Assembly (NCBI GenBank): GCA_030295235.1
Contig: AP026155.1
Coordinates: forward strand, 496,001-560,000
Direction: 5' to 3'
Source: Fistulifera solaris
Taxonomy: Eukaryota
DNA length: 64,000 bases
Position numbers and translations under genes: made by a program. Below the pieces are notes generated by a model. It was given only the letters and a program-made list of their open reading frames with translations, was not told the origin of the DNA and ran no database searches. Positions 2,323 through 35,365 of this stretch are shown piece after piece; position 1 is the stretch's first letter, and each line of letters starts with the position of its first letter.

Positions 2323-2607
2323 GCCTTTGAAGCTGAACATTAATTAACAACTCATAGAGGAATATGCAGATTAAAAAGAGTTGAAACTTTGACTATAAAT
2401 TAAATATTAGCGTTAAGCTACCAGCAATTCTGCGAATACGCTTCGACTTCAACATTTGTTTTCTCGACTTTGAGTACTTTCGTGAAAGTAAAGACTCATC
2501 TATTCTTACTCAGTATTTGCGGTTGAGTCGTTGCAGACAAATTATGTGTCGGTTCGTAAGCAGTGGGAAACTACAAAGGTAATTCCTTCTCGAAGCTATT
2601 ATTTTAC

Positions 2608-4577
2608 TCACTTTTTGAGAAGCGAATCCCTGTATTCCTTAATAGCTCGTCCCCATATTTCGTAGCCTTTCTTGTTCGGATGAACGCCATCCGTGTATAA
2701 ATCAGCCTTCACTGTCCCGTCAGAGTTCAGAAACAAGTTCGTTGCTTCAAAGAATTGGACGGCATTTCCCGTCGACTCGGTAAAGCATTTTAGCTTTGAA
2801 TTGATGAGATGAATAACATCAAAGCCTGTATCCATGCGAGGAAGGATTGAATTGATGACAATTCTTGCTTTTGGTTTTCGGCGCATAATTTCTTTTACTA
2901 CGACGATGTTTGCAGCGACAATCGTATCAGAATTGCAGTCGTCGGTAATATCATTCGTCCCGATCAGTATCCATATAACTGAAACGTCAAGCTCCGAAGG
3001 GGAGTTCCCCGTTTTGAATACGATGTAGAAGGTACGATGACCTGTCTGCTGAAATTCCCATTACTAGCGTGGATTCGTTTGAAAATAGTTCGGCGAAAAC
3101 GCCCGGTATATCCCTATAGCGAAGCGATGGAGTACCGAGAACTGTTCCAAGCCACAGTTCTGTTATCGAGTCCCCCATAAGCATTAATTCCACGGTCGAC
3201 TTGTTTGCTAGAAACGGAATCAGCTGGTTTTTATTGCGCTGGAATGTTTTCGTCCATCGTGCATGCATTCTCGGGTCATCATTTGCCATGGGTAAATGAG
3301 GATCTAGACACAGACATGGATCTTTCTGACGGCAACGGTTTGTCGGCGCGGTCGAGTTTTCATTCATCATGGCGTCGAAATAGCTGGCTCTTCCGCAAAT
3401 GGGCTGAGATACCGTGTTATCATCGCGAGACATTTCAAAAATAATTTCTTCGACTCGCTGAACGATCGCCTTGCCCCAAACTCTATAGCCCTCACTCGAT
3501 AGATGAAGCGAATCTTGGTATAGCGTAGCGTTTCGATAGTCTGGACTTTCATGTGCCACAAAGAGATTGGTAGCGTCGAAGAACTCGAGGGCACTGGAGG
3601 CAAACATTTCTGAATAACACTCGAGATGCTTGTTAATTCGTAGTGCCTCTTGCCAATTCCGATCCTCTGTGAGATGCGTATCATTGGCGTTTCGACCACT
3701 GCGGGGCAACAATGAATTCAACACGACTTTCGTTTTACCTGGAGTCAACTGCATTCAAAACAAATTCCGCCACTGCAATATTCCCAGCCACCACAGCGTC
3801 TACATTGCAATGATCACCACCCAAGTCGTTGGTCCCAATATTAATCCAGATAACTTTCGCCGTCGTCAGGAGTTCACCCTCTTTCATTCGGTACAAGAGA
3901 TGCGGAATGCGGTCACCGGATATTCCTAACGCCAAGCCCCGCATCGTCCCGTCTTGAAAATAGTGCTGATACACTGGACGAACGTCACTGTAATCACGAT
4001 TCTGCCTACCAAAATCCGTTCCAAGCCAGTGTTCGGTCAAGCTATCACCGAGCAAGAGAACATCTAAGGCTTGTGAACTATTAAATCGTTGCGCTATGTC
4101 CACGTTACGCTGAAAAGCGTCGTTCCATTTTTGTAATATCGGTAATCGACGTCCTGTTTTCGCGGAATGGTAGGATTCTGGCAAAGACATTTTCGTTTCC
4201 GGCCAATATCATCACACAAATCCATGCTATCCAGTTTCTTGCGCAATGTTTGATAATACTGAAGATTTGGGCAAGAACGAATCACTTCCGGAAGCGTAGG
4301 ACCGACATAGATAGGATCCACAATGGTAGGTGCGGGAAAAGCGGCCGGTTCTTGAGAATACTCTTCTGTGGGCAGCTCCTTCAGATCCTTAGATGAGACA
4401 TCCGATGCATGGTTATCGGGCAAATAGTAGATAAGAATACTCGTGACGATGAAGAGAAAGAGGGAAAGGAGAGTATAATACAGCGTATTTTTTTGACGAA
4501 CGTTCGCTTATCCGTCTGGTCGACGGAGCTTGCTCACCTTCCCTCACTGGAAGACTTTCGTAGGCTCCTTTTGTCAT
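2608..4577 (-). CDS. Type II membrane protein with two tandem SGNH/GDSL hydrolase domains (PAF-acetylhydrolase IB-like); about 4 single-base frameshifts
   Basis: Domain 1: LLLGDSLTEHW, GISGD, INIGTND, QDSLH. Domain 2: MLMGDSITELW, GISAD, IGTND, TDGVH. Stitched from ORFs 4413-4613, 4094-4423, 3735-4190, 2987-3754 and 2608-2886. Confidence 0.8.
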
Positions 4578-24424: not shown

Positions 24425-24768
24425 GTTTATTGATTAGCACTCGTCGTAAGGATTTTCTTTGATGATATATATAGCAACAAGCCTTTTTTGCCATTATGCT
24501 ACTTGCTTATTATCATCGCGATCATCGGTTTTTTTTTCGGCCGGACTGACGCATGGGCGCGTTTGCGCACTATTAGTTACTCAATGTATTTCTGATTTAC
24601 AGGCCACGGAAGACGACAGACACACGCACAAGATCTTTCGTAGTATATTATTACGGAATATCTTATTCGCATCGTCGCACTTATTCGTTTCTTATGATTT
24701 CTTCAATTGGAAGGCTCACTTCAATTCTTCATCATCTCAAAAATAACAATACAAAACTTTACATAAGC

Positions 24769-25905
24769 ATGCCATCTATTGCGGTTTTGACACCCGTATT
24801 ACCCTTTAACGACCAGAAAGAGATTGTCTTGTCGGAACAAGATCAACAACGTGATGCCTTGGATGAATACAATCATTCACGTCAACGCCGTGCCTTGATT
24901 TTACAAGAATTGCGCACGCGTCCCGGTATCGACATCAAGCTGTGTACGCCTTCCGACGACGACGACGACGACGACGACGAGACAGACTGGGTGACGCACA
25001 TCTATCGTAAAGTCCATTCGTCCGAATTGTTGCAGTTTTTACAAACGGCCCCCGCACGCTGGGAAGCGTTGGGAAAAGCCGGACAAGATCCCATTGCTTC
25101 GTTGCGCGCTGCACTCATTCCCATTTGTGTTCCGCTACAACGTACGACGGCGTCCCAACGTCCGAGTCAACATGTCGTAGGACAAATGGGATATTATTGT
25201 ACCGACAATTGCACGCCGCTCTTTGCCGGTATTGTGGAAGAATTCGAACGCGATGCCTACCTCGTGCAGTGTGCGTTGCAAGAGTCTTCCCGCACAGTCG
25301 TCGTCTTGTTGCCGACTCATCCGGGTCATCATGCGGCAACCGATTGTTTTGGAGGATACTGCTATACGAATCACGCGGCGGCGTTGGCGGCGCATTTGCC
25401 TCACGAGCGAGTTGCCATTCTCGATGTCGATTATCATTGTGGCAATGGGACGGCCGCCATTTTTGATAATGACCCGAATGTACTCGTGGTCAGTTTGCAT
25501 TGCGATCCGGACTACGATTATCCGTTTCATGCCGGATTCGCCGATGATGTCGGTACCGCCGGTACCACGTGTCATTTGCCGTTGCCACCGGGGACTGATT
25601 GGGCTCAATACAAACCTGCCTTACAACAGGGTTTGCAACGAATTCGGGACTTTGGTGGTACGGCTTGCATTGTATCCTTGGGATTGGATACGTACGATCA
25701 AGATCCGTGTGCCTTGCGACGAGCGGGATTCCATTTGCGTGACAATGATTACGTTGCCATGGGTCGGTGTATCGCACAAGGACTCGATACGAGTGTTCAA
25801 GTCTTGTTTGTTCAGGAAGGTGGGTATCGCATGGATAAGGTGCCCGTGGCGGCGGCCGATGTGATTTGTGGATTTGCGGAAGAACGCGAGAGAATGAGTG
25901 AATGA
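24769..25905 (+). CDS. Histone deacetylase family, acetylpolyamine amidohydrolase-like
   Basis: HPGHHA, GGYCY.N, DVDYHCGNGT, SLH.DP..YPF, SLGLDT, QEGGY. Confidence 0.88.
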   Translation: MPSIAVLTPVLPFNDQKEIVLSEQDQQRDALDEYNHSRQRRALILQELRTRPGIDIKLCTPSDDDDDDDDETDWVTHIYRKVHSSELLQFLQTAPARWEALGKAGQDPIASLRAALIPICVPLQRTTASQRPSQHVVGQMGYYCTDNCTPLFAGIVEEFERDAYLVQCALQESSRTVVVLLPTHPGHHAATDCFGGYCYTNHAAALAAHLPHERVAILDVDYHCGNGTAAIFDNDPNVLVVSLHCDPDYDYPFHAGFADDVGTAGTTCHLPLPPGTDWAQYKPALQQGLQRIRDFGGTACIVSLGLDTYDQDPCALRRAGFHLRDNDYVAMGRCIAQGLDTSVQVLFVQEGGYRMDKVPVAAADVICGFAEERERMSE

Positions 25906-27299: not shown

Positions 27300-27749
27300 A
27301 TGATGAAGCTCGAACCACGCAATTCGCTCTTCGTTTACGGCACTCTCATGGCACCTCCCGTCATTCAAACTCTCCTTGGAAGGGTGCCTCCACACGGCAC
27401 GGCAATTCTTCAACATTATCGACGACATCCAGTACGACATCAAGTCTATCCTGGAATGATTCCTCAAATCGGTGCCATGACACAAGGCATTTTGTATCAC
27501 GGACTGACACCAAAGGAGATAGCACGACTCGATTGGTTTGAAGATGTCGAATATGCGAGACGGCCCGTCATTGTGACAATGGGCACAGAAGAAACCGCGA
27601 CAGACACGTATGTATGGACGAATCCTTTGTCCGAATTGCAGTTGGATTCTGAATGGTCGATCGAAGACTTTTCTCAAACCCATTTAACCCGATTTTTAGA
27701 AAAAACGGTTCAACCGTGTTGTATTCGAATGGAAAGTGAAGGTTTGTAA
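27300..27749 (+). CDS. AIG2-like gamma-glutamylcyclotransferase-fold protein
   Basis: LFVYGTLM, YPGMI, LDWFEDVEYAR, TYVW. Confidence 0.88.
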   Translation: MMKLEPRNSLFVYGTLMAPPVIQTLLGRVPPHGTAILQHYRRHPVRHQVYPGMIPQIGAMTQGILYHGLTPKEIARLDWFEDVEYARRPVIVTMGTEETATDTYVWTNPLSELQLDSEWSIEDFSQTHLTRFLEKTVQPCCIRMESEGL

Positions 27750-27913
27750 CGACTCCGTTACATTCGACTTGATCAACTACTTTAATGTTCCCCTTATTTT
27801 CTGTTCTACTAGTTACTTATTTGTTATGATGTTTAGTTCGCCGTTGCGCTAATGGACTTTCGTCATTCGGCAAGCGAATCTCTACTTTTTTCCTCTTTCG
27901 CGTTTCTTCTTAC

Positions 27914-28267
27914 CTATTTCACACGCTTCGCTGATGACAAACCCGCCGATAGAAGATCATCGACCGAGTCTTTCTTCATCGTCGGCACCTTTTACGTACA
28001 ACCGGGGCGACCGAGTTGGCTTGCTGGGCACTCTCTTGTTCTTGTTTTGCCTTTTTGGCAGCAATTTTAGCTTCTAGTGCTGCCGCATCACTGCTATTGC
28101 GTTGCAACGGATCTCCTCCCTGTAACAGCAATCAAAATGAGAAAACACACACGGCAGCGATAGAGAGTCACTTGCAGCTTTCGTACCCTGGCTTGCGATT
28201 TGGCTTTCGCCTGTTGTTTGGCTAAATTCTTGGCACGATCTCGATCTCGCTGGTCACCTCGTGACAT
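27914..28267 (-). CDS. SERF/4F5-like small EDRK-rich protein (2 exons; intron about 28120-28186)
   Basis: MSRGDQRDRDRAKNLAKQ; exon 2 DPLQRNSSDAAALEAKIAAKKAK...LSSAKRVK*. Confidence 0.8.
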
Positions 28268-28726
28268 TCTATGCAAGCAAGTTAAAATGGAAAAGCTACG
28301 GAGTAGTAGATAAGGAAAAATAAAGACAAGGGAGAGGCTCACACTCACTGGGCGAACAAAGGAGGGGCGAATGACGCGAAACGACTGGCGGTGCGATTGT
28401 TGCCGCAAAGTTGTGTTTTCTCGCCAACAACGTGCAACGTGCAACGTGCAACACAGACGTTGATGATGGGGCGATACATACTACCAGGTACGTACTTTGT
28501 ACGGACGTTGCACTGTGGAAGCCATGCCAGGACATACCGGTATTTATGAATCATAGAAACAAACGTGTTCCTATGCCTCGTAAGCCTGAACCCTTATTAA
28601 AAACGATAACAGACTGGTCGCATCGAGCTCGACGCTTCCGTCATTCTAGTTTGCAACAAGAAGAACAAAATCAACCACAAAACTAAGACTTCTTACATAA
28701 AACTGTTTCAACCAAAAGGAACGCAA

Positions 28727-29552
28727 CTAGTCGTCGGCTGCCTGAAGAGCCGCCACGACGGATGCGGAATCCGTCACGGACCCAAAGATCCCTCCTTGTG
28801 CCGTAATCATGCGGAGCGCCGTTTTGTGAAAGTCATCAAAGAAGGAAGCACACGCATCCGACACGGCAATACAGTGATAGCCACGATCGTTGGCTTCTCG
28901 GATGGTGGTATGGACACAAACTTCGGTTGTGACGCCCATGACCAACAAGGTCGTAATATTTTGAGCTTGCAAGATGGCTTCCAAGTCTGTGGCATAGAAG
29001 GATCCTTTTCCTGGTAGAAATAATGAAAGTATGATGTAAGATAGCAGTGAATTCATACACTTGTTATTTTTTCAAGAGTGACGACGCGTACCGGGTTTGT
29101 CCACGACCGGCTCTCCGGTGATGGGATACAATTCTTCAATAATATCATGACCTTCTTCACCACGAATCAGAATCCGACCCATGGGACCCATCTCACCAAT
29201 GGCCGGAGGTACCGTTCCGTGCTTGTCTTTTTTCCAAACATGCACATCGGCCATGCTGGGACGGTGGCCCTAACAACGAAACAAAAGTGAGAAAACAAAA
29301 CTATTGCAGGAGTCATACTACCACACGAAAACGCACTTCACGGGTATGAATCACCAACATGTTTCGAGCCCGTGCGGCTTCCAACACCTTTTGGCAAGGC
29401 TGAATGGCGCGTGTCAATTTCGAGACATCGTTGCCCAACTTTTCGCCAAAACCGCCCGGCAACAAAAAGTCGCGTTGCATGTCGATAATTACGACAGCCG
29501 TACGTTCCAAATCTATGGTTCCATCCCGTGGTTTCATATGAATAGGAGCCAT
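28727..29552 (-). CDS. trtA: Triuret hydrolase-like isochorismatase-family cysteine hydrolase (exons 29552-29337, 29269-29092, 29010-28727)
   Basis: [71 protein letters not shown] introns restore the frame. Confidence 0.82.
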
Positions 29553-29938: not shown

Positions 29939-30868
29939 ATGTTGCATACTCATTCTTTGTGTTCTTTCTTCTTCTTGTTGTTGTTCTTCTTCTCCTTCTA
30001 CGACACCGTCATCGCCCACGAGTATTTGATTGTCGGTGTCAGTGGTGGATTGCAAGATGGATTCCCCGAACGTTCGAAAATGGATTATCATCACGGTCAA
30101 GACGATGCCGTCCCGGCCGTGTTTCTGGGCAAAGCTTTAGTGCGGGGTTATAAAGCTTTTTTGGATGTCATGCAACCGGGATGGCGACAATATATTGAAG
30201 AACCAGGACAACCGCTCATCAACAGTAATGTGTTCCCTTCAGGATGTTACGAACATGCGAATGAATATTGGATTTATTTGATTGATTCGAGACAAGTCAT
30301 GGCGGTCTTGAACAATGAACCACGGTTTCTGAGTATTACACCCGACACGGGGATGGTCGATTTGCGGGCGGAAGAAACGAGCCCGGTCGTGCGCGCTCTC
30401 TTGGAGCAAATGATTCAACAGCAGGGCAAATCCGATTTGGAACAAGTAGCCATTCCACTCGTGACCGCGGTTTGGTTTCAAAAGGAATCTCATGTGCCCA
30501 GTCCACCGATTCGTATACACGAAGATGGAACGTACATTACCAATTTCCCCGAATCGTTGGCCTTGTGGGCCAATGTAAGTGATGCCGATCGGACTGCATT
30601 ACAGGAGGAATGCGCCGATCAAACCTGTTCCGCCGAAGCCCTCCAACGTGTGCAACGATATTGGGACGGCATTCGTCGAGCGGTACGTCACGCCGAGCAG
30701 TCGTTGGCTGAGTTGAAAGATGTCAATTACGGTCCACCCTTTCAATGTAAGACCAAAGTACGATTTGGAGTAGGAAACGACACGGCCCGGATCAATTATC
30801 CCTTTCCGATCAAACAAATGACGGCACTGTTGCAATCGGTAGGATTCAATTTAGAGCAAAACAGCTAG
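29939..30868 (+). CDS. Signal-peptide protein with weak resemblance to the allophanate-hydrolase C-terminal/GGCT-like domain
   Basis: Intact 309-aa ORF; hydrophobic leader; IVGVSGGLQDGFP..AVFLGKALVRGYKAF and WIYLIDSRQVMAVLNNEPRFLSI. Confidence is for the CDS; function is much less sure. Confidence 0.8.
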   Translation: MLHTHSLCSFFFLLLFFFSFYDTVIAHEYLIVGVSGGLQDGFPERSKMDYHHGQDDAVPAVFLGKALVRGYKAFLDVMQPGWRQYIEEPGQPLINSNVFPSGCYEHANEYWIYLIDSRQVMAVLNNEPRFLSITPDTGMVDLRAEETSPVVRALLEQMIQQQGKSDLEQVAIPLVTAVWFQKESHVPSPPIRIHEDGTYITNFPESLALWANVSDADRTALQEECADQTCSAEALQRVQRYWDGIRRAVRHAEQSLAELKDVNYGPPFQCKTKVRFGVGNDTARINYPFPIKQMTALLQSVGFNLEQNS

Positions 30869-30881
30869 AAATTATAGAATA

Positions 30882-32036
30882 TTACGTTTCATGACTCGAT
30901 AGACAACGAATCAGGGTCTTGGAATCCGTGACAGCACCAAAGACACCTCCTTGCTTTTGAATCATGGAAATCGCCGCATCGTGATTGAGAGGATCCGTGG
31001 CGGCACAACAATCCGAGACGAGTAAACATTCGTAGCCCATGTCGTTTCTGGAAACCAGGAAAAGCACGTTCAGTCTCATGCCCATCCATCCAAAGACAAC
31101 TCATAACGAAACTTTCTACTTACGCGTTGCGCATGGTCGTATGAACACAGACATCGGTTGTGACACCCGCAAGAATGATATTGACAATGCCCTTGGAACG
31201 TAAAATTAAATCCAAATTCGTACCTATCAATCGATCGAACCATTGAGAAACGAACCCAATTCCTATACACTCAAACACACACACACACAAAGCAAAAGAA
31301 AACACACGTACCGACAAAGGAACCCTTGCCGGGTTTATCAATGACAATTTCCTGCGGCAAGGGTGCCAATTCGGGAATAATTTCCCATCCCGGTTCTCCT
31401 TTGATCAAAATGCGACCACAAGGTCCGGCGAAACCAATGGCGGCCCCAATCTGTTGACTCCGCCAGAGTTTGTTGGGAGGACAATCAGCCATGTCTTTTT
31501 GTCAAAATAAAAAATGAGATATTAAGACCGTTCGGAACGAAACAGCAAACTCATTCGAAACGCGTCGCGTACCTGGTCGATGTCCTTCCCGGGTATGTAA
31601 AATGTGATATCCCAAGCCCCGCAGACATTCCAATACGTTTTGAATGGGTTCAATTGGTTGGCGTGTCAAGGAAATCTAAAATATCGAGTGCGTCTGTATG
31701 TGAGAGGCGAAAATGTCTCTCTGTTTCTTTCTTCCTTACTTTAGAATTTGTGTTTTTGTTCCATCCACTTACATCATATCCCATCTTGTCAACGTATCCA
31801 CCCGGAGAACAGAAATCGACCTATATATGCCAAAATAAAACAGGAAAGGCAATCAGAAAAGAGAAGTCAATCATCGACCCATGGAGAAATGACAATACAA
31901 TTTCATTTTCCCTTCTTTCTTTTTCTTTGGAAGAACGCACCTGCATATCAATCACAATAATACACGTATTCGATGGATGCAAGTTTCCATTATACGGCCA
32001 AGCGTATGGTTGCGCGTCAATGTATGTTTGGGTCAT
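30882..32036 (-). CDS. biuH: Biuret hydrolase (isochorismatase family), 6 exons
   Basis: [86 protein letters not shown]; introns about 31940-31821, 31772-31676, 31572-31495, 31310-31224 and 31123-31051. Confidence 0.9.
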
Positions 32037-32942: not shown

Positions 32943-33444
32943 ATGCCGGAACCGAAACTCCCACCCAACGAATCGACCTTCGTGCAGGATGTCATGTCCA
33001 TGTTTTCCATGACGCCCGCCGATTGGGGTTGTCTTTGTCAGCTCTTTTTGACAATCTTTCGACGCTGCTCGGAGCACTCTTTGCCATTCAAGGATTGGCC
33101 AATTTGGGAGATATCAGTGCCGATTTAAGTATGATCAACTATTATATCTTTGGGAAGATTGTGCCCGGAGTCGGTGTCACGTTGCTCGCCGGAAACATTT
33201 ACTATGCGTGGCAAGCGTCGCGTCTCACCAATCGGTGGGGACGACAGTACACGGCACAGCCGTATGGATTGAATACACCGGCGGCCTTTTCCTTTGTCTT
33301 TAACATTATGTGTAAGTGCTGACAAGACGCGTGAGAGTGTAGAGTGTCGATGGGGTCCTCTCTCTCTCTCTCTCTCTCTCTTTCAACACGCATATCACAT
33401 CTCGCTCTCTCTCTCTCTCTCTCTCTCAACACACATCTCTCTCA

Positions 33445-33489
<45 letters not shown>

Positions 33490-35365
33490 ACACGCAGACC
33501 CCGTCTATTTCAGTTTGGTGTTTACGGAAGGCTCCGAAGTTGCCTTCAAGACAGCCTACGATGTCGCACTCGCCGCCAACTTTATTACTGGTTTGATTTC
33601 CACCGTCTTGGCCTTTTTGGTCCCCTCATTTTGCAATACGTCCCGCCCGCTGCCCTTCTCGTACCGATTGCCGGCATTGGTATTGCCTTTTTGGGCATGG
33701 AACAAGTCACCAACAGTATTGCTGCCCCGCTCGTGGGATATCCCGCCATTTTGTTTGCCTTTTTGGGGTGGTATTCTGGAGTCCGACTCGGATACGGCAA
33801 TTACCGTTGTCCGGAAGCACTCCAAGTCATTCTGGTTGGTGTCATTATGGGCTGGTCCACGGGTCTCAACAAGAAATCGACCGTGGAAGATGCGATGGAT
33901 CTCGTCAAGTGGTATGGACCGGATTGGTCCGCCGATGACATGTTTGCCAATTTTGATCTCATTAAAGATTATTTGGGAATTGTCATCCCCATTGGTATTT
34001 CCGCAACCGCCACCACTTTGATGTGTCTCGTATCGGCTAAGAATGCGGGAGATCCGGTACGTCCATGTTAAGAGCACGTTGGTATGTGTGTCACATTCGA
34101 TCCTCTTAACCCCTTGCCTCAAACAGTTCCCCGTTCGTGAATCCATGATTGCGGATGGTATTGGAACCATGATTGCGTCCTTTTTGGTTCTCCCTTTGGC
34201 ACGGTCATTTGTAAGTCCAAGAGTGGTGGAAGCGACGATATGATTATTTTTGTTTGGATATAGATGACCTCAATTTTTTCAAAACTTGCACCAATTGCAG
34301 ACATTGGACATCCCGCTCACAAGCGCAGTGGTGCCAAAACCGGATACAGTATGGCCAATGGTCTCATTTACTTCATCCTGTCGTGGTTTGGAATTCTGGC
34401 TTTTATTCAGAGCATTGTCAATGTAGCGACCATTGGTCCGATTGTTTTATTTGTCGGTACGTCGATATATTGTGAGGCGGCGATTGGATTCGGTCGATCG
34501 ATCGATCGATTTCTCACTCAAAGATTTTGCCTTTTTAGGTCTCGCCATCAACGAGGAATGTTTGAACTTTATTCCGTCTCGTCAGTATGCTGCCTACGTG
34601 TAAGTAACGAATCCCGCTCTCTCTCTTTCTCTATAATTCTCTAGGGACGGCATCTAACACAGTTTTTCGTTCGACAGCGTTGGTTTGTTTCCCTCCATCT
34701 TTGATTGGGTCGTGAATGTGGCGAACCGCAGTCCTCTTGGTAATGACGCCGATGGCAATACCAATTTCCCCGGTGGAGATGGCTGGTTTGGTATCTTGGC
34801 TTGGAAACGCGGTGCCTTGTTGGTTTCCTTTGTGTGGGTTGCCATTTTGGTACGTGAAATGCGTGCTCTCCGTTACACGATTGTTCTTCTTCTCGCTCAT
34901 TTGTTGGTTTTTTAGGTCAGTGTGATTGATCGTCAATGGAACAAGGCGACCTTTTGGAGTTTGTTGGCGGCCGGTTTTGCTCTGTTTGGCATCATTCATA
35001 TGCCCGAAGCTGGTTTGGACAAGTTGAGCGAACCCTTTTGGGAACAGTGTCCCGCGGGCGGTTCCTGCTGGGAACATGGCGAACAGTGGATGTACTTTGT
35101 GGCGTATCTCATGTTTGCAGGTATTTTTGTGCTCATTGAATTGGCTCGTCGATTCGGTCTTGATGAACAATTGTTGCCCGGCTTGGAAGATCCAACGTCC
35201 GACGAGTTCAAGGACTGGTTCCGTGATGCCGAAAAGACGACGCACACTGTCACGAAGACGTGGCGTGATGAATTGGAAGAGAAACGTTTGGATCCAACGG
35301 TGCAGTCGAGCGAGAAGGTGATGGGATCGGACGGCGACGAATCGCCGGTCGAAGAAGACGCTTAG
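32943..35365 (+). CDS. NCS2/AzgA-like nucleobase/ureide permease, multi-exon (some frameshifts)
   Basis: LFFDNLSTLLG, PGVGVTLLAGNIYYAWQASRL, TAQPYGLNTP, AALLVPIAGI, AGDP.PVRESMIADGIGT, IGHPAHKRSGAKTGYS; many TM segments. Confidence 0.82.
33357..33486. repeat. Compound (CT)n microsatellite in a permease intron
   Basis: Three (CT)n blocks separated by TCAACAC(G/A)CA(T)-type spacers. Confidence 0.95.

Follow-up and report, generated by a model that had tools for sequence, protein, structure and literature searches.

How does a protein with a secretory leader come to be encoded between two hydrolases that have none, and what reaction, if any, would it carry out there? The question is raised by a gene of Fistulifera solaris, here called P0001, which lies between trtA and biuH in a 64,000-nucleotide stretch of contig AP026155.1 (hereafter the window; Table 1). 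In PMC7948467, TrtA is described as making carboxybiuret, which decays with a half-life of ~20 min unless TrtB acts on it, a step for which bacteria use an enzyme, and as occurring in 'some fungi and phytoplankton'. An earlier, sequence-only reading of the window proposed that P0001 could assist the decarboxylation of carboxybiuret or allophanate, or bind substrate, and this proposal is followed up here computationally.

Gene model and predicted fold

P0001 is a single open frame running from ATG to TAG, and 13 bp separate its stop codon from that of the convergent biuH (30882-30884). These coordinates agree with the sequence-only reading, which had described an intronless 309-aa ORF divergent from trtA and ending 13 bp from the biuH stop, and both segments it quoted are present in the translation. 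Among 2446 candidates, 221 homologues were found at E ≤ 0.001, and a second copy, likewise flanked by trtA and biuH, lies on contig C38 (92% over the core); P0001 is thus a real gene and not a chance reading frame. A search with a distant family member as the query found no further paralogue. Residues 1-248 are identical to an annotated 252-aa F. solaris protein, the public model of which uses a GT at ~30683 and an AG at 30756-30757 as splice sites. Since C270, G277 and N286, invariant in 45 aligned homologues, occupy positions absent from that model, it was rejected in favor of the intronless reading. The segment 30683-30774 appears to be a false intron in the public model, truncating the protein. 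The one read set consulted on expression covered introns and intergenic DNA in the manner of a DNA run.

Table 1. Position and character of P0001, its segments and the neighboring genes of the cluster (window coordinates)
Feature	Position	Strand	Description
P0001, gene of interest	29939..30868	+	Intronless, 309 aa; secreted-type protein with predicted GGCT/AH_C fold
Signal-peptide-like leader, residues 1-26	29939..30016	+	Predicted by hydropathy
GGCT/AH_C-fold domain with insertions, residues 27-212	30017..30574	+	Predicted by structure alignment; loop S35-G36-G37-L38-Q39 and E127-P128-R129 conserved
C-terminal extension, residues 213-309	30575..30865	+	Long helix 232-259, Cys270, conserved (R/F)G...(R)IN motif
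trtA (triuret hydrolase type)	28727..29549	-	Three exons (29549-29337, 29269-29092, 29010-28727); 224 aa, no leader
biuH (biuret hydrolase)	30882..32036	-	Six exons; 244 aa, no leader
NCS2-type (xanthine/uracil/vitamin C) permease	33009..35365	+	Multi-exon, approximate boundaries

The structure of P0001 was modeled with AlphaFold2 from 45 sequences (mean pLDDT 87, pTM 0.84). A Foldseek search with the model gave eight matches at E ≤ 0.001, all GGCT-like, with c4763 (PDB 5C5Z) and the allophanate hydrolase of K. lactis on top. In VIA-align, model residues 27-212 aligned with K. lactis 4ISS (Z 11.2, rmsd 2.2-2.3, 130 aligned) and, tied with it, 5C5Z (Z 10.8-11.0, rmsd 2.3, 126 aligned), followed by YkqA (10.1), PH0828 (9.7) and GGACT (8.8-9.5). 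Judged by the modeled structure, P0001 belongs to the GGCT-like superfamily, and the GGCT/allophanate-hydrolase-C fold on which the sequence-only reading had staked its proposal was found with both programs. Given that YkqA, PH0828 and GGACT also align at Z ~9-10, the function of P0001 cannot be read from its fold. The same reading had described ~150 aa of extra C-terminal sequence; the extra sequence exists, but its layout is different, comprising ~55 aa inserted within the domain and a C-terminal extension of ~97 aa.

Relationship to stand-alone AH_C proteins

The P0001 family comprises 209 representatives at 50% identity, and its named members come from diatoms, a brown alga, pelagophytes, a dinoflagellate and a haptophyte. 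With P0001 or its alignments as queries, Pfam, NCBIfam and PDB sequences gave no named match, and the ESM Atlas returned unnamed clusters only, with scores of 0.87 or less. Neither P0001 nor 33 alignment members reached the Pfam cut-off for AH_C (PF21986); P0001 matched neither Pfam GGACT nor the AtzH-like/HpxZ (DUF3225) library entries, and the N-terminal amidase-signature domain found in AtzF had no NCBIfam or Pfam match in P0001, a protein of only 309 aa. A search of plasmids with the core domain yielded just two matches, at E 1-3.

Profile comparison was more informative. In HHalign, a profile of the family core (33 rows) matched 11 bacterial stand-alone AH_C rows with a probability of 92% (E 5.9e-7, 91 columns), the reversed control giving 0.4% and the best of 60 column shuffles scoring 25.8 against 46.4 for the match. 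The close diatom alignment alone reached a probability of only 11%, and the family profile did not match 42 His-type AH_C rows, mostly AtzF-fused (1%). c4763 (5C5Z) is itself a member of the stand-alone group (E 1.6e-42). The profile match with its controls and the modeled structure both indicate that the P0001 family is remotely homologous to stand-alone AH_C proteins. The resemblance that the sequence-only reading had noted by eye to stand-alone relatives near bacterial biuH genes was borne out by the profile alignment, the closest profile being that of bacterial stand-alone AH_C encoded beside trtA.

In these alignments, E127-P128 of P0001 pairs with the E-P motif of the stand-alone group and G36-G37-L38 with its G-T-L loop, position 37 being T in 100 of 224 family members. 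L38 falls on His492 of the K. lactis enzyme (G-A-H motif); the position holds L, I, F or R in 224/224 members and L or I in 220/224, and His was found in 0/224. Conservation is high at E127 (243/248), R129 (246/248), D76 (237/239) and R83 (233/238), and some twelve polar residues reach 95-100% conservation in members down to ~35% identity. The near-invariant E127 may be equivalent to E82 of GGACT, and one stand-alone AH_C protein, P0324, exceeds the Pfam cut-off for GGACT.

P0001 thus shares with c4763-type stand-alone AH_C (PDB 5C5Z; PF21986) the predicted fold, a G-[TG]-L loop, the nEP motif and an occurrence in trtA/biuH clusters, but is a protein of 309 aa compared with a leaderless single domain of ~130 aa, at 14% identity and with no PF21986 match, and differs further in its leader, its insertions, its Cys pair and its C-terminal extension. 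With the C domain of allophanate hydrolase (AtzF/urea amidolyase; K. lactis 4ISS, 5I8I) it has in common the fold and a ureide/carbamate pathway context, whereas it lacks an amidase domain and a profile match, has Leu38 at the His492 position and carries Glu where AtzF has none. GGACT/AIG2, GGCT, ChaC and YkqA are similar in their superfamily fold (Z 5-10) and in a conserved Glu after the central helix, the equivalence of which is presumed, but have YG[ST]L where P0001 has SG[GT]L; P0001 also differs from the GGACT/GGCT enzymes in its ureide context and in having no Pfam GGACT or profile match. Fan et al. (2013) reportedly proposed a decarboxylase role for the C domain of allophanate hydrolase, with His492 essential, while the C-domain of AtzF is said to be dispensable in some studies.

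The trtA/biuH/permease cluster in algae

The trtA product carries F47, N53, E173 and I218 (BiuH numbering) and is of the TrtA type, departing from it at two lesser sites, where Y200 is replaced by F and A147 by S. The biuH product equals Rhizobium pRL10 BiuH at 12 of 12 checked positions (65% identity). The signature positions for both enzymes were taken from PMC7948467. The permease was typed through its orthologue on metagenome contig L020, which matches plasmid genes annotated as NCS2/xanthine permease, one of them beside a cysteine hydrolase. Relative to this orthologue the window shows a frame change in a T run at ~33045-33050, and run X1 showed one T inserted at each of 33613, 34180 and 34531; these are probably homopolymer assembly errors.

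Other genes nearby do not appear to belong to the cluster: an AIG2-like GGACT gene, a VAMP gene and an HDAC-like gene had no tblastn match in any of the 12 metagenome loci or the 11 bacterial ones. The GGACT gene (27300-27749), 1 kb beyond trtA, encodes a member of the same fold superfamily with no similarity to the P0001 family profile (probability 0.4%). The HDAC-domain (acetylpolyamine amidohydrolase-like) gene at 24694-25905 was not found in the algal contigs, and a gene resembling it by eye follows biuH in a Polyangiales locus (L040). A small spliced minus-strand gene, with an intron at 28119-28185 seen in run X3, occupies 27800-28400 between the GGACT gene and trtA.

Linkage to trtA or biuH in other genomes, which the sequence-only reading had made a touchstone of its proposal, does recur. 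One of the two genes adjoins the P0001 homologue on 7 of 12 metagenome contigs, equivalent to five independent cases at 48-60% protein identity and with differing gene orders; four of the 12 contigs are shorter than 1.6 kb. trtA is divergent from the homologue on L012/L013 and on L015/L017, where a permease is also adjacent; biuH is convergent with it on L016; L019 has two trtA genes and biuH; and L020 has biuH and the permease, with a second paralogue on the permease's other side. The 5.9-kb contig L021 has no trtA or biuH neighbor. L017 also encodes, beside trtA, a zinc deaminase and a DIOX_N/2OG-Fe(II) dioxygenase (2510-4297), possibly upstream purine-oxidation genes, and neither was found in the window.

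Some family members are physically joined to hydrolases. An isochorismatase-like domain is fused in 6 of 18 long relatives, picked by eye or length, and a seventh fusion was found separately; in a tree of 55 rows the seven are spread over three places, and they involve three types of hydrolase partner. The partner in P0273 is of the TrtA type and truncated. Those in P0261, P0263 and P0317 carry K145N/Q215E, which we take to be the signature of guanylurea hydrolase (GuuH-like), and the remaining fusions have a third partner type. The fusions depend on gene calls, and the cluster representative of P0273 is without the fused domain. Two of the partner types (TrtA and, by this putative signature, GuuH-like) release an N-carboxy product. 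The P0261, P0263 and P0317 fusions also hint at natural guanylurea use in pelagophyte-type algae.

Bacterial relatives

In 9 of the 10 Nitrospiraceae loci studied, the gene right after trtA encodes a stand-alone AH_C (c4763-type genes in this position were noted at L081:7142-7537 and in L113-L119, L123 and L124), and one genome has a full AtzF at this spot. On an E. coli plasmid, a stand-alone AH_C (L027:11190-11579) is clustered with a cysteine hydrolase, DUF2877, DUF1116, carbamate kinase and a cytosine permease in one record, and numerous E. coli plasmids carry the same protein (78 records). The label glutamyl-tRNA amidotransferase attached to some stand-alone AH_C records and to PDB 5C5Z is probably wrong. 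The slot after trtA is taken by three unrelated small proteins, cupin, HpxZ/TrtB and AH_C; rhizobia carry a cupin gene there and Pseudomonas carries hpxZ (L028:10544-10897, L029:9486-9893).

Full-length bacterial homologues of P0001 are rare (11 loci; 2 of 151 Nitrospiraceae), and most read as secreted. trtA or biuH was adjacent in none of the 11 loci. Elsewhere in the 11 carrier genomes, biuH was found over the cut-off in six, as a partial match in two and not at all in three (both Nitrosomonas marina genomes and one Nitrospira), compared with 9/151 in the Nitrospiraceae sample, an enrichment that kinship may explain in part. Among Nitrospiraceae carriers, biuH was over the cut-off in 5 of 8 and a partial match in two more. 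Some carriers also encode a cytosolic stand-alone AH_C. In the Nitrosomonas marina homologues (L001:5821-6660, L011:5818-6660), the conserved C-terminal motif stands at the N-terminus, a circular permutation. A formamidase gene (AmiF, over the cut-off; L003:3965-4981) lies just upstream of one Nitrospiraceae homologue, and formamidase genes are found in bacterial biuret operons too.

Cellular location

Hydropathy analysis predicts a hydrophobic stretch at residues ~5-21, the sole one in P0001, with likely cleavage after A26. A hydrophobic leader is present in 116 of 140 Met-starting members of the GG-type subgroup to which P0001 belongs. Of the 138 members that have Cys103, 123 also carry the C-terminal Cys motif, compared with 0 of the 63 that lack Cys103, and this co-occurrence in the sequences makes it likely that Cys103 and the C-terminal Cys form a disulfide. 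KDEL-like ends were seen in 7 of 248 family members. The next Met is M48, and a start there would lose the conserved loop, so that no working leaderless form of P0001 is expected. In diatom plastid targeting, a missing transit peptide and a missing aromatic +1 residue speak against import, and the P0001 domain begins directly after the leader with His-Glu, with neither feature present. Based on the leader, the Cys pair, the ER-type ends, the lack of a plastid-type signal and the unusable M48, P0001 most likely resides in the ER or at the cell surface, apart from the leaderless TrtA and BiuH. The compartment problem that had been raised from the sequence alone is a real one.

A step between TrtA, BiuH and urease

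According to PMC12625717 (legend of Fig. S11), TrtB was aligned with AtzH and HpxZ, and AtzH is reported in PMC6219798 to have an NTF2 fold. P0001 is therefore not a TrtB, and was rejected as such on fold (GGCT compared with NTF2, DUF3225); it would fill the same slot between TrtA and BiuH as the carboxybiuret decarboxylase TrtB and its relatives AtzH and HpxZ, and could at most be their non-homologous analogue. The genome encodes urease. Exon-wise searches of the genome, which could miss genes, gave no AH_C (PF21986) match and found neither AtzF (the best match to the AtzF model being GatA) nor TrtB/AtzH (the best match to the AtzH model being an NTF2 repeat of the SgcJ/EcaC type, which barely exceeds the Pfam cut-off). 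Both carbamates would therefore have to lose CO2, spontaneously or with help, for their nitrogen to reach urease.

Proposed function and alternatives

P0001 very probably belongs to a module for the use of ureides (triuret/biuret). The best explanation of its ancestry and setting is that it is a divergent, secretory-targeted member of the c4763-type AH_C branch, in a conserved algal cluster of trtA, P0001, biuH and an NCS2 permease. As to its activity, we favor, with a probability of roughly 0.4, a glutamate-dependent carbamate decarboxylase that converts carboxybiuret to biuret and allophanate to urea. This reading draws on the AH_C/c4763 proteins as top structural matches, the profile match, the stand-alone AH_C genes linked to trtA, the algal linkage, the fusions, the conserved E127 and R129 and the gap in the pathway; the strongest pointer is the existence of leaderless members fused to hydrolases that yield N-carboxy compounds.

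That carbamates break down under general acid catalysis is established chemistry, and a mechanism may be sketched by analogy with the role mentioned above for the allophanate hydrolase C domain. The SGGL/SGTL loop would hold the N-carboxylate and Glu127 would protonate the carbamate nitrogen, whereupon CO2 would leave; the resulting biuret would be a substrate for BiuH, and the urea one for urease. If this took place in the ER lumen or at the cell surface, anionic carbamates leaving the cytosol or arriving from outside would be converted to neutral biuret and urea for uptake. Substrate, reaction, location and the part played by Glu127 are all inferred.

Location is also the main problem for a decarboxylase, the leader and likely disulfide of P0001 standing against the leaderless TrtA and BiuH. 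The AH_C histidine is replaced, His-type AH_C rows are not matched, the diatom alignment alone gives the low probability quoted above, and the fold is shared with YkqA, PH0828 and GGACT. Furthermore, none of the bacterial homologues lies beside trtA or biuH, 3 of the 11 carriers are without biuH and some have a cytosolic AH_C of their own. The literature searched contained no report of activity for any stand-alone AH_C.

In a close rival, rather unlikely in our estimate, P0001 acts outside the cytoplasm and never meets cytosolic carbamates, either binding triuret or biuret or making them from an oxidized-purine precursor, and so feeds the NCS2 permease. The leader, the disulfide-like Cys pair and the ER-type ends would all fit, as would the adjacent permease in L015/L017 and L020, the second paralogue across the permease in L020, and the deaminase and 2OG-Fe(II) dioxygenase next to trtA in L017. 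Most bacterial homologues are of secreted type and co-occur with biuH even where a cytosolic AH_C is present, but in Nitrospira this co-occurrence may reflect kinship. The fusion of leaderless members to cytosolic hydrolases points instead to a reaction on hydrolase products, the near-invariant Glu-Pro-Arg looks catalytic and the GGCT fold is not known to be a solute-binding fold.

Cyclization or elimination of the GGCT type is improbable. Here Glu127 would act as a base, and P0001 would break a ureide C-N bond without water (by cyanate release or ring closure) or act on a gamma-glutamyl amide. Such chemistry would suit a Glu in place of His, the GGACT and YkqA structures at Z 8.8-10.1 and the match of P0324 to the GGACT Pfam model, but the family has no profile similarity to the AIG2-like GGACT of the window, E127 is no more than a candidate counterpart of GGACT E82, and the context is ureide hydrolysis and not glutathione or isopeptides. 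A degenerate AH_C serving as a non-catalytic scaffold, regulator or ureide sensor would account for the loss of the histidine and recall the AtzF C-domain said to be dispensable, but is very unlikely, the dozen polar residues conserved down to ~35% identity speaking against it. Least credible is a passenger of unrelated function, suggested by the unlinked genes in 11/11 bacterial loci, by L021 and by the carriers without biuH (both Nitrosomonas marina genomes and one Nitrospira), but at odds with linkage kept at 48-60% identity in five independent contigs of varied gene order, with repeated fusions and with a nearest bacterial group in trtA operons.

Implications

Literature searches on biuret and allophanate hydrolases found no account of the P0001 family or the algal cluster, although specialist papers or supplements may mention them. 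By this measure the P0001 family appears to be new, as do its link with c4763-type proteins, its predicted secretory targeting and the conservation of the algal cluster; the GGCT fold was already known, and so were the flanking enzymes and the presence of TrtA in phytoplankton. For several hundred algal and nitrifier proteins that form an unnamed family, it is now possible to propose a fold, a pathway and a reaction that can be tested. It is doubtful, though conceivable, that the P0001 family and c4763-type AH_C together form a class of Glu-dependent carbamate decarboxylases unrelated to TrtB/AtzH, which would replace TrtB plus AtzF by way of urea and urease, with a secretory diatom version in an operon-like cluster scavenging the nitrogen of oxidized purines.

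If P0001 is a decarboxylase, it would close the enzymatic gap that diatoms show between TrtA, BiuH and urease, and would offer a stand-alone handle on the unsettled role of the allophanate hydrolase C domain. Stand-alone AH_C would then also be a candidate enzyme for the decarboxylation that comammox Nitrospira are reported to lack, trtB being absent from comammox contigs according to PMC12625717. Whichever reading is correct, the presence of the four-gene cluster across diatom-like genomes points to triuret and biuret as natural nitrogen sources for phytoplankton.
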